From positions 965,410-1,029,409 of the forward strand of contig NW_008805086.1 of assembly GCF_000004825.1 (NCBI RefSeq): a DNA stretch of 64,000 nucleotides. The letters are read 5' to 3'. Position numbers and translations under genes: made by a program. This stretch comes from Heterostelium pallidum. Taxonomy: Eukaryota. A model generated the notes under the pieces. That model was given only the letters and a program-made list of their open reading frames with translations, made no database searches and had not been told where the DNA came from. Position 1 is the first letter of the stretch. Each line of letters begins with the position of its first letter. Positions 57,501 to 58,655 of this stretch are shown here, piece after piece.

Positions 57501-58655
57501 AAATCGGCACAAGCTCCTCCACAACAACAACAACAACAAAAATTAGTTGCTGATCAATCTTCCTTACTTAATTCAATTAAAGAAGGAGCCAAATTAAAAA
57601 AGAAATCAGTGTCACATTCTTATTCCCCAACTGCACCATCTTACTCACCAACCTCACCATCTTACTCACCAACCTCACCATCTTACTCACCAACCTCACC
57701 ATCTTACTCACCAACCTCACCATCTTACTCACCAACCTCACCATCTTACTCACCAACCTCACCATCAATTAATCCGTCAGATTATGTCAAAAGTGGAGCA
57801 GCAGCAAGTGCAGGAAATATGAGACTGATGGACACTCTATCCTCTGCATTGTTTTCAAGACGTTCAACAGTTAAGTTCGACAGTTATTCTGAAGATGAGC
57901 CGAGCGATGACGATTGGGACGATGATTCACCAATGGAACAATTGAGTATCGATCCTGCTCCCAAGATGAAATATGAACAAAAGAAGGAGGAATGCTTGTC
58001 AGAAGAGGAAGGAGAAGATTTCAGAATGTCCTTGTTTGATGATGGTTATAGTGTACCTCTTACAGAACCAAAATATAACAAAGATATTGGTGCTCCACTT
58101 GCAAAATCGCAGCCAGAGAGAATCTATGAAGAATCAGAAGAGGATTGCGGTCTATTTGATGGAGATTTTGAACTTGAATTACTCGCAAAACCAGCTCCTA
58201 AGCCAATTTCTACTTCATCATTATCATCTTCATCAAGTGCCAAGAGATGCACTGTCATTGCAAACGATGACTCTGATGAGGACATGGGATTCGATTTGTT
58301 TGGCGACTACAGTCAGGAAGAAAAGAAAGCTTCACCACAAAAAGAAACGGAATCGATTGTTTGGAAACTCAATTCAGCAATCAACGGCAGAATTATGGAG
58401 GTTTTGGAGATTCTTGGTATCCCATTGAATGATCCGTTCATCCAAAAGGTTAATAAGAAAGAATACACCAGAGTGATAAACGAGTTGGTATTTGTTTTCC
58501 TCAAGCTACTCATCCATGATACAGAGGCTGCTCAAACCATGTTGAACAAGCTCAATAGATTGGCCCAAATCAAAACTGTACAAATCGATAGATATAGTCC
58601 AGCCTACTATTGCCTCAAGAGAACAAGATATGCACATCTCATTAAATCATTGTAA
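51509..58655 (+). CDS. Vault-type poly(ADP-ribose) polymerase (PARP4/vPARP-like), ~2328 aa. Exons are join(51509..51634,51720..53230,53309..58655). Domain order is BRCT, WGR-like, PARP catalytic, VIT, vWA, then a long low-complexity tail.
   Basis: BRCT exon ([37 protein letters not shown]). PARP signature [21 protein letters not shown]...[16 protein letters not shown]|YQYCD...VVCQVALG split by a 78-nt intron. VIT domain ([43 protein letters not shown]). vWA domain ([20 protein letters not shown]...[10 protein letters not shown]). Introns are 85 and 78 nt. Confidence 0.85.
57618..57770 (+). repeat. Perfect 21-bp tandem repeats encoding seven YSPT(A/S)PS heptads (six exact 'tcttactcaccaacctcacca' units) inside the PARP4-like CDS.
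   Basis: Direct reading shows six identical 21-mers, preceded by one degenerate copy encoding YSPTAPS. Confidence 0.9.

Follow-up and report, generated by a model that had tools for sequence, protein, structure and literature searches.

We analysed a 64,000-nucleotide stretch of the Heterostelium pallidum genome (assembly GCF_000004825.1, contig NW_008805086.1, positions 965,410 to 1,029,409 of the forward strand; hereafter the window), in which a gene for a PARP4-like protein carries a tandem array of the heptad Y-S-P-T-S-P-S, the repeat in Rpb1's C-terminal domain (CTD), Rpb1 being a subunit of RNA polymerase II. The gene model comprises three exons on the forward strand (51509-51634, 51720-53230, and 53309-58655) separated by two short AT-rich GT..AG introns, and encodes 2327 aa rather than the 2328 aa given in an earlier note on this DNA. 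The predicted protein was identical, at 100% coverage, to the NCBI entry [quoted passage not shown], H. album PN500 being the former Polysphondylium pallidum according to the taxonomy record; the name H. album is used below. The array lies in the third exon, in an unbroken open reading frame (ORF) of 5.3 kb (53346-58655). The features of the gene are the following (window coordinates, strand, description, basis):

51509-58655, +, whole PARP4-like gene, three exons, 2327 aa (gene model and NCBI identity)
51527-51938, +, BRCT domain, aa 7-115, spanning intron 1 (Pfam PF00533, 24.5 bits, cutoff 21.3)
52614-53537, +, PARP regulatory and catalytic domain, aa 341-622, spanning intron 2 (Pfam PARP, 89.2 bits)
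53730-54062, +, VIT domain, aa 687-797 (Pfam PF08487, 123 bits)
54477-54944, +, von Willebrand A (VWA) domain, aa 936-1091 (Pfam VWA_3, 59.7 bits; VWA, 43.5 bits)
55581-56213, +, 14-3-3-like domain, aa 1304-1514 (Pfam PF00244, 79.4 bits, cutoff 33.2)
56463-57281, +, low-complexity tail: RD/RE-rich, RSRSRS, and RGG stretches, then FG/Ser-Thr-rich repeats (translation)
57336-57437, +, poly-proline stretch, aa 1889-1922, upstream of the WH2-like motif (translation; found in five of five orthologues)
57546-57602, +, WH2-like motif, the V of a VCA-like module (profile search; AlphaFold2 helix)
57618-57767, +, heptad array, aa 1983-2032 (translation, Tandem Repeats Finder, Pfam)
57816-57872, +, C-like amphipathic helix, the C of the VCA-like module (profile alignment; predicted helix)
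57882-57926, +, acidic stretch with Trp, the A of the VCA-like module (alignment of orthologues, profile search)
58122-58169, +, weaker acidic stretch with a GLFD motif (conserved island; likeness to the ribosomal P-stalk by eye only)
58266-58307, +, peptide like the C terminus of the ribosomal P-stalk (conserved island; Pfam Ribosomal_60s, 13.6 bits, below cutoff)
58341-58655, +, C-terminal helical domain, aa 2224-2327, and stop codon (AlphaFold2 pLDDT 86, six helices)

The array proper occupies 57618-57767, so that the span of 57590-57780 quoted in the earlier note encloses it but is too wide. It is in frame and encodes S, one YSPTAPS, and six copies of YSPTSPS, in agreement with the seven heptads, six of them of exact consensus, reported previously. 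The DNA reads TCTTATTCCCCAACTGCACCA, followed by six copies of TCTTACTCACCAACCTCACCA (57639-57764) that are identical to one another, as had also been claimed. Tandem Repeats Finder (TRF) assigned to the array a period of 21, 7.1 copies, 96% matches, and a score of 270, the second highest in the window and the highest among short-period arrays. Four of the 21 bases of the first unit (YSPTAPS) do not match the other six, and three of these four changes are synonymous; the first unit therefore predates the six-unit expansion. The six identical 21-mers indicate a recent expansion beside one older, diverged unit, which bears out the very recent expansion proposed before; the copy number in H. album was lately raised by slippage or unequal exchange. 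No second CTD-like array was found in the window in any frame of either strand.

The Pfam repeat model RNA_pol_Rpb1_R (PF05001) scored 35.5 bits on a 171-aa segment of the tail, against a cutoff of 20.3, and just 13.6 bits (E=0.087) on the whole 2327-aa protein. Pfam did not find the RNA_pol_Rpb1 core domain in the protein, and since the heptads are moreover internal, we speak of a CTD-like array and not of a CTD. AlphaFold2 modeled aa 1958-2090 as a helix, a coil made up of the heptads, a second helix, and a second coil, with a pTM of 0.16. A coil between two helices at such a pTM suggests that the array is an exposed, unstructured insert.

That the array is an artefact of assembly or annotation is extremely improbable. 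Assemblers can collapse or expand perfect repeats, and nothing specific of this kind was found here. Sanger reads are longer than the 147 bp of the array, which makes mis-assembly unlikely, and because the array lies within one uninterrupted ORF, its reading frame is independent of splice prediction. The translation is also identical to the deposited protein, and independent counterparts of the array are present in other genomes.

When aa 1127-1509 served as the query for an exhaustive HMMER search of the protein library, five full-length dictyostelid orthologues were found: those of H. album, Cavenderia fasciculata, Synstelium polycarpum, and Dictyostelium purpureum, and a further dictyostelid protein, P0004. 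Exact YSPTSPS arrays were present in four of the five, with both orders of Dictyostelia represented, as listed here:

H. album: six exact copies and one YSPTAPS
C. fasciculata: three exact copies and YEPS/YEPT variants
D. purpureum: five to six exact copies and variants
P0004: two exact copies and YAPTSES

The arrays of H. album, D. purpureum, and C. fasciculata were read directly in genomic DNA, and those in the dictyostelid loci other than that of H. album lie at positions 6188-6355 of locus L001 and 6413-6517 of locus L002; two of the orthologues and several of the animal sequences mentioned below are gene predictions. The orthologous proteins showed just 58-63% identity over 1231 alignable columns, and a scan of the tails found them hardly alignable outside a small number of islands. 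Two of these were the best conserved: the heptads, and an acidic MGFDLFG peptide that resembles the C terminus of the ribosomal P-stalk and scored 45-58 in four of four orthologues. The codons of the consensus heptad unit were the following:

H. album: TAC TCA CCA ACC TCA CCA TCT
D. purpureum: TAC TCT CCA ACA TCC CCA AGT/C
C. fasciculata: TAC/T TCC/A CCA ACT TCT/A CCA AGT

Between species, the consensus units thus differed by 13 synonymous and 0 replacement changes, and the Ser7 codon even came from different codon families (TCT versus AGY). In C. fasciculata the three exact units were all mutually different at synonymous sites.

CTD heptads were also found in PARPs outside the dictyostelids. 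In the calcareous sponge Sycon ciliatum, a PARP4-like protein has 11 of them, and its seven exact units are written with four different 21-mers; synonymous variation between units is plentiful at this locus (chromosome OZ025904.1, positions 49917-50147 of L003). Pfam found no 14-3-3 domain in that protein. A transcriptome-derived Sycon fragment, P0153, covers the N terminus only, so that it lends the sponge heptads no transcript support. A PARP of the bivalve Sinanodonta woodiana carries CTD heptads in a stretch of 14 letters. Queried with the heptad peptide alone, a collection of 5.8 billion proteins yielded just 15 short fragments. As a specificity control, each of the 60 rotation classes possible for a heptad of one Y, three S, two P, and one T was looked for in the 150 best relatives. 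The CTD order was the sole class present, being found in six proteins and in tandem in five of them, while the other 59 classes had zero occurrences. Given the composition of the long relatives examined, about 0.0005 proteins would be expected to contain even one exact YSPTSPS. Together with the absence of the 59 other orders, this excludes chance as the source of the heptad order.

These data bear directly on the view that the array is neutral, a coding microsatellite whose 21-bp unit is prone to slippage and sits where insertions are tolerated. The six identical units do testify to ongoing slippage or unequal exchange at the array, dictyostelid genomes are rich in simple repeats, and one orthologue has lost its array. 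The same peptide, however, is written with other codons in three more dictyostelids, a sponge, and a bivalve, and its exact units vary only synonymously. With the peptide kept, the codons divergent, and 1 of 60 possible orders seen, a neutral microsatellite is not supported; we regard this explanation as largely refuted and its truth as highly improbable. According to the earlier note, heptads confined to this strain in a variable frame would have spoken for neutrality; the same heptads turned out to lie in frame in other dictyostelids.

In H. album the array splits a segment (57546-57926) with the composition of a WASP-type VCA module: a WH2-like motif, preceded by poly-proline, is followed by the heptads, a C-like helix (LSSALFSRR), and an acidic part, DDDWDDD, containing a Trp. 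After excision of the heptads, four orthologous segments were combined into a profile, which was compared with all PDB sequences and whose top matches were exclusively proteins of the WASP family. It matched the WH2 repeats of N-WASP (E=1e-7), the N-WASP VCA in the Arp2/3 complex (6uhc_H, E=2.3e-5, aligned over 429-497), and WAVE1 (4n78_D, E=3.8e-4, aligned over 496-557, up to the terminal Trp). The alignments ran across V, C, and A of N-WASP and WAVE1 in that order. The Pfam WH2 model itself remained below its cutoff of 23.1, with 11.5 bits in H. album and 11.5-18 bits over three orthologues. The L/A/L/R residues of the C helix were invariant in the four aligned orthologues, as was the Trp of the acidic stretch in the orthologue alignment. 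Judging by these profile matches, the segment flanking the heptads looks like a WASP-type VCA module.

The position of the array relative to this module differed between species. In H. album and P0004 it lies between WH2 and C, directly before the C helix; C. fasciculata and D. purpureum have it upstream of the poly-proline and WH2 elements, 150-250 residues before WH2 and outside the VCA. The first arrangement, and the abundance of SP/TP kinase sites in the array, would suit a phosphorylation-regulated spacer, i.e., a flexible Ser-Pro linker between WH2 and C/A that tunes an Arp2/3-activating VCA. A linker would have no need of the exact CTD sequence, however, and the position outside the VCA in C. 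fasciculata and D. purpureum speaks against it. We therefore consider a spacer role very unlikely. Since its position is unstable, the array seems to turn over or move within the tail while its presence stays, and such turnover of position with maintained presence is a pattern typical of short linear motifs.

Upstream of the poly-proline stretch, the tail (56463-57281) contains RD/RE, RS, RGG, and FG-type stretches, i.e., types typical of RNA-binding proteins and nucleoporins, and a 33-bp repeat lies at 57099-57170 in its FG/Ser-Thr-rich part. The RS stretch was not kept across the dictyostelid orthologues, and the RGG stretch likewise was not kept in D. purpureum. These stretches, and the predicted lack of structure, raise the question of whether the heptads act with the RGG, RS, and FG-like sequences as condensate "stickers" that partition the PARP into RNA polymerase II/CTD-type or ribonucleoprotein condensates, the phase behavior of the CTD being well established. 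Stickers tolerate scrambling, yet only the exact CTD order was found and it is kept residue for residue across species, while the RS and RGG stretches that should cooperate with it are not conserved. A sticker role thus appears improbable to us.

Peptides consisting of an acidic run followed by MGF(D/G)LF(G/D) occur downstream of the array in one to four copies per dictyostelid orthologue, and the motif is kept in five of five. The Pfam family Ribosomal_60s (PF00428; cutoff 28.1) matched four stretches in D. purpureum with 69.7 bits, its 13.6 bits in H. album falling short; the family is also on record for the orthologues P0002 and P0005. Readings of this peptide as an LIR, clathrin-box, or FxDxF motif were rejected by inspection, and Pfam backs the P-stalk reading. 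The vaults of D. discoideum have lately been reported to enclose 80S ribosomes (PMC13100048); a link between the stalk-like peptides and vault-enclosed ribosomes would be speculative.

In the 14-3-3-like domain the fold signature is kept and helices H-I are nearly identical to those of canonical 14-3-3. The phosphopeptide-binding residues, in contrast, are replaced in five of five orthologues, the sole basic residue kept being R56 in P0004; in H. album, K49/R56/R127/Y128 of 14-3-3 zeta correspond to D/-/G/I. We had considered that this domain might bind phosphorylated heptads in cis, as Y-S-P-pT-S-P fits the S-x-pT-x-P pattern, and rejected the idea because the phosphate-binding residues are lost.

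The last 104 residues form a predicted helical domain (pLDDT 86, six helices) that is conserved in the dictyostelid orthologues. No significant PDB relative of it was found either by profile search, which gave chance matches only, or by a Foldseek search with the pLDDT-86 model. A profile of the C-terminal part of animal PARP4 matched aa 1574-1717 of human PARP4, its MVP-binding domain, with E=7.5e-50. Comparison of the dictyostelid domain with this animal domain by hhalign gave a probability of 0.2%, and we rejected it as an MVP-binding domain, bearing in mind that remote homology could escape such sequence and fold searches. The earlier note had described the host as vault-PARP-like. Its PARP4-like nature is well founded: human PARP4 (8sx1_A) was the best solved relative of the catalytic region (E=8e-44, versus 3e-19 for PARP1), the H-Y-E residues are retained, with lyHGS, giYF, and ddEivv aligning opposite PARP4 residues, and BRCT, VIT, and VWA domains are present, each scoring above its Pfam cutoff. 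With no detectable kinship to the MVP-binding domain, on the other hand, "vault PARP" is an unproven label for this protein. D. discoideum does possess vaults and vault-proximal PARPs (PMC13100048).

The same 150 relatives showed a wider pattern in the region between the VWA and C-terminal domains. In many lineages, comprising animals (cnidarians, molluscs, flatworms, a sponge, and others) and some protists, the PARP4-like tails contained fragments of highly conserved proteins. Ubiquitin was found in at least 16 of the proteins, including those of Biomphalaria and Sinanodonta and a Diplonema japonicum transcript, and actin residues ~2-70 were found in Nematostella, Hydra, Mytilus, Magallana, and Macrostomum. 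Further fragments came from the Hsp70 substrate-binding domain, the N-lobe of calmodulin, and the histone H4 tail, and a stretch like the H3 tail, GKAAPRKHLATKAARKSA, was recognized by eye. Many tails hold only helices H-I of 14-3-3. P-stalk-like peptides recurred in Magallana, Argopecten, and three further sequences, and one protein, P0050, has ubiquitin, a piece of actin, a P-stalk peptide, and an Hsp70 substrate-binding domain in a row. Examples that can be named are P0045 (Magallana gigas), P0025 (Nematostella), P0026 (Hydra), and P0024 (Sinanodonta). The tail of human PARP4 is not known to carry any of these copied motifs. With several copied peptides along one tail, the H. album tail looks like a multi-bait platform that would offer the heptads, the VCA module, the P-stalk-like peptides, and the 14-3-3 remnant.

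On this background the tails of the PARP4 family in Amoebozoa and animals could be pictured as a display rack of pieces copied from hub proteins (heptads, P-stalk, VCA, actin, ubiquitin, and others), which would serve as integrated decoys, baits, or tripwires. Pathogen effectors or toxins that attack the hubs would bind the copies and thereby be captured, ADP-ribosylated, or sequestered, possibly in vaults, or would activate the PARP. A decoy of this sort is one kind of bait, with a foreign ligand. The idea fits the copies being fragments and not working domains, and a 14-3-3-like pocket that is dead while helices H-I are nearly intact. Ribosome-inactivating toxins, moreover, dock on the P-stalk tail. 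Influenza polymerase binds the CTD (PMC4907247). In mammals, recurrent positive selection acts on the corresponding disordered stretch of PARP4, which has been proposed as a binding interface contacting pathogen factors (Daugherty et al. 2014, PMC4038475), and the decoy idea fits this as well. The case is nevertheless entirely circumstantial. The fragments could instead be substrates in cis, or insertions tolerated by a permissive exon, and the heptads are conserved rather than fast-evolving, although conservation is to be expected of a decoy whose target does not vary. We judge a decoy function unlikely; if it were true, PARP4, and perhaps vaults as well, would gain a definite role in innate immunity.

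The explanation towards which we lean, with modest confidence, is that the array is a CTD-mimicking bait, maintained by selection in a disordered tail, that docks CTD-binding proteins beside the PARP. The heptads would act as a short linear motif, an exposed and probably phosphorylatable copy of the CTD, for which kinases, phosphatases, a prolyl isomerase, and WW- or CID-type readers of the polymerase II CTD are the candidate binders. Docking would place such partners next to the PARP catalytic domain, where they could be ADP-ribosylated or sequestered. The exclusive CTD order, the conservation of the peptide despite divergent codons, which shows purifying selection on it, the change of its position, the predicted disorder, its occurrence together with other copied motifs that are themselves ligand-type peptides, and the binding role proposed for the corresponding region of mammalian PARP4 (PMC4038475) are all in line with this picture. 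To the extent that sequences can decide such a matter, they favor reading the array as a functional CTD mimic.

Several observations weigh against a selected CTD mimic. Seven repeats are few beside a real CTD, most CTD-binding proteins are nuclear while animal PARP4 is largely cytoplasmic, and the specificity figure refers to 150 relatives. In S. polycarpum no more than a degenerate remnant, SPTSPSNSP, is left, which shows that an array can be lost. The variable position of the array, described above, does not follow the protein tree, a rough version of which groups P0004 with D. purpureum, and the arrays may therefore have arisen more than once. A D. discoideum orthologue was not returned by the orthologue searches, so that at least one lineage can do without the protein.

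The architecture of the host, a PARP4-like region with VIT/VWA and 14-3-3, is already known from P. pallidum, D. fasciculatum, D. purpureum, and others, D. discoideum not being among its carriers, and 14-3-3, actin, and ubiquitin "domains" were recorded in PARP4-like proteins in the same work (Perina et al. 2014, PMC4245714). That paper mentions neither heptads, nor WH2, nor the ribosomal stalk. Our literature searches found no mention of CTD heptads or stalk peptides in PARP4, nor any paper treating the PARP4 tail as a set of copied peptides. The heptad array, its conservation, and the accompanying copied peptides therefore appear undescribed, as the earlier note had supposed of the heptads for any PARP.

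Canonical YSPTSPS arrays are treated as a hallmark of RNA polymerase II. An exact and conserved array in an ADP-ribosyltransferase implies that the machinery of the "CTD code", or its attackers, may be engaged outside the polymerase. The tail pattern also makes the purpose of PARP4, and perhaps of vaults, testable, be it recruitment by mimicry or a set of decoys, and H. album (P. pallidum PN500) is genetically tractable.

The neighboring gene, on the reverse strand at 60656-61885, encodes five CCHC zinc knuckles (CFKCNQTGHISRDCP). They derive from a 93-bp tandem repeat at 61282-61522, whose TRF score of 412 is the maximum of the window. The helical-repeat region that follows the zinc knuckles seems to extend into the ORF at 58712-59497.

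Among known systems, the Clade 5 PARPs (PMC4245714), in which Polysphondylium pallidum is listed, share the order BRCT-PARP-VIT-VWA-14-3-3 with the present protein; the loss of the phosphopeptide-binding residues of 14-3-3 is what the present analysis shows in addition. Human PARP4 (vPARP) has the closest solved catalytic domain, the H-Y-E residues, the BRCT, VIT, and VWA domains, and a long disordered region between VWA and the C terminus in common with it, but its C-terminal MVP-binding domain (aa 1574-1717) is not detectably related to the dictyostelid one. In WASP/Scar (WAVE) proteins the VCA is built from WH2 (LLxxIxxGxxLKK), an amphipathic C helix whose Arg is conserved, and an acidic, Trp-containing stretch, with poly-proline in front; the H. 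album segment follows the same plan, its V part being a WH2-like motif below the Pfam cutoff. It differs in that V and C of H. album are parted by the 49-residue heptad array, and in that the array-bearing protein has no WH1/GBD or Scar homology domain. The C terminus of the ribosomal stalk proteins P0/P1/P2 (...SDDDMGFGLFD) has the same acidic run and MGF(D/G)LF(G/D), at a free C terminus, whereas the peptide described here is internal and its H. album copy falls below the Pfam cutoff. Plant NLR integrated decoys and the NLRP1/CARD8 "tripwire" are related to our protein as an idea only, in that copies of host target proteins or peptides are joined to a receptor or an effector enzyme; our protein is an ADP-ribosyltransferase without an NLR, and pathogen recognition would be assumed by analogy.

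The array resembles the Rpb1 CTD in having Y-S-P-T-S-P-S in tandem and in one register, in matching the Pfam repeat model above cutoff, and in being predicted unstructured; it differs in having only 7 repeats, in being internal, and in belonging to a PARP4-like protein that lacks the Rpb1 core. The closest parallel to the proposed docking is offered by yeast, where the CTD-mimicking motifs (NIM) of Trf4 and Sen1 bind the CTD-interaction domain of Nrd1 (PMC4186968, PMC7110113). There, binding of a CTD mimic to a CTD reader is an established mechanism, which by analogy may serve as a precedent for the heptads in PARP4-like proteins. In both cases a nonpolymerase protein carries a peptide imitating the CTD, but the Trf4 and Sen1 motifs are single, short, and merely resemble the phosphorylated CTD, whereas the PARP4-like array consists of exact heptads in tandem.

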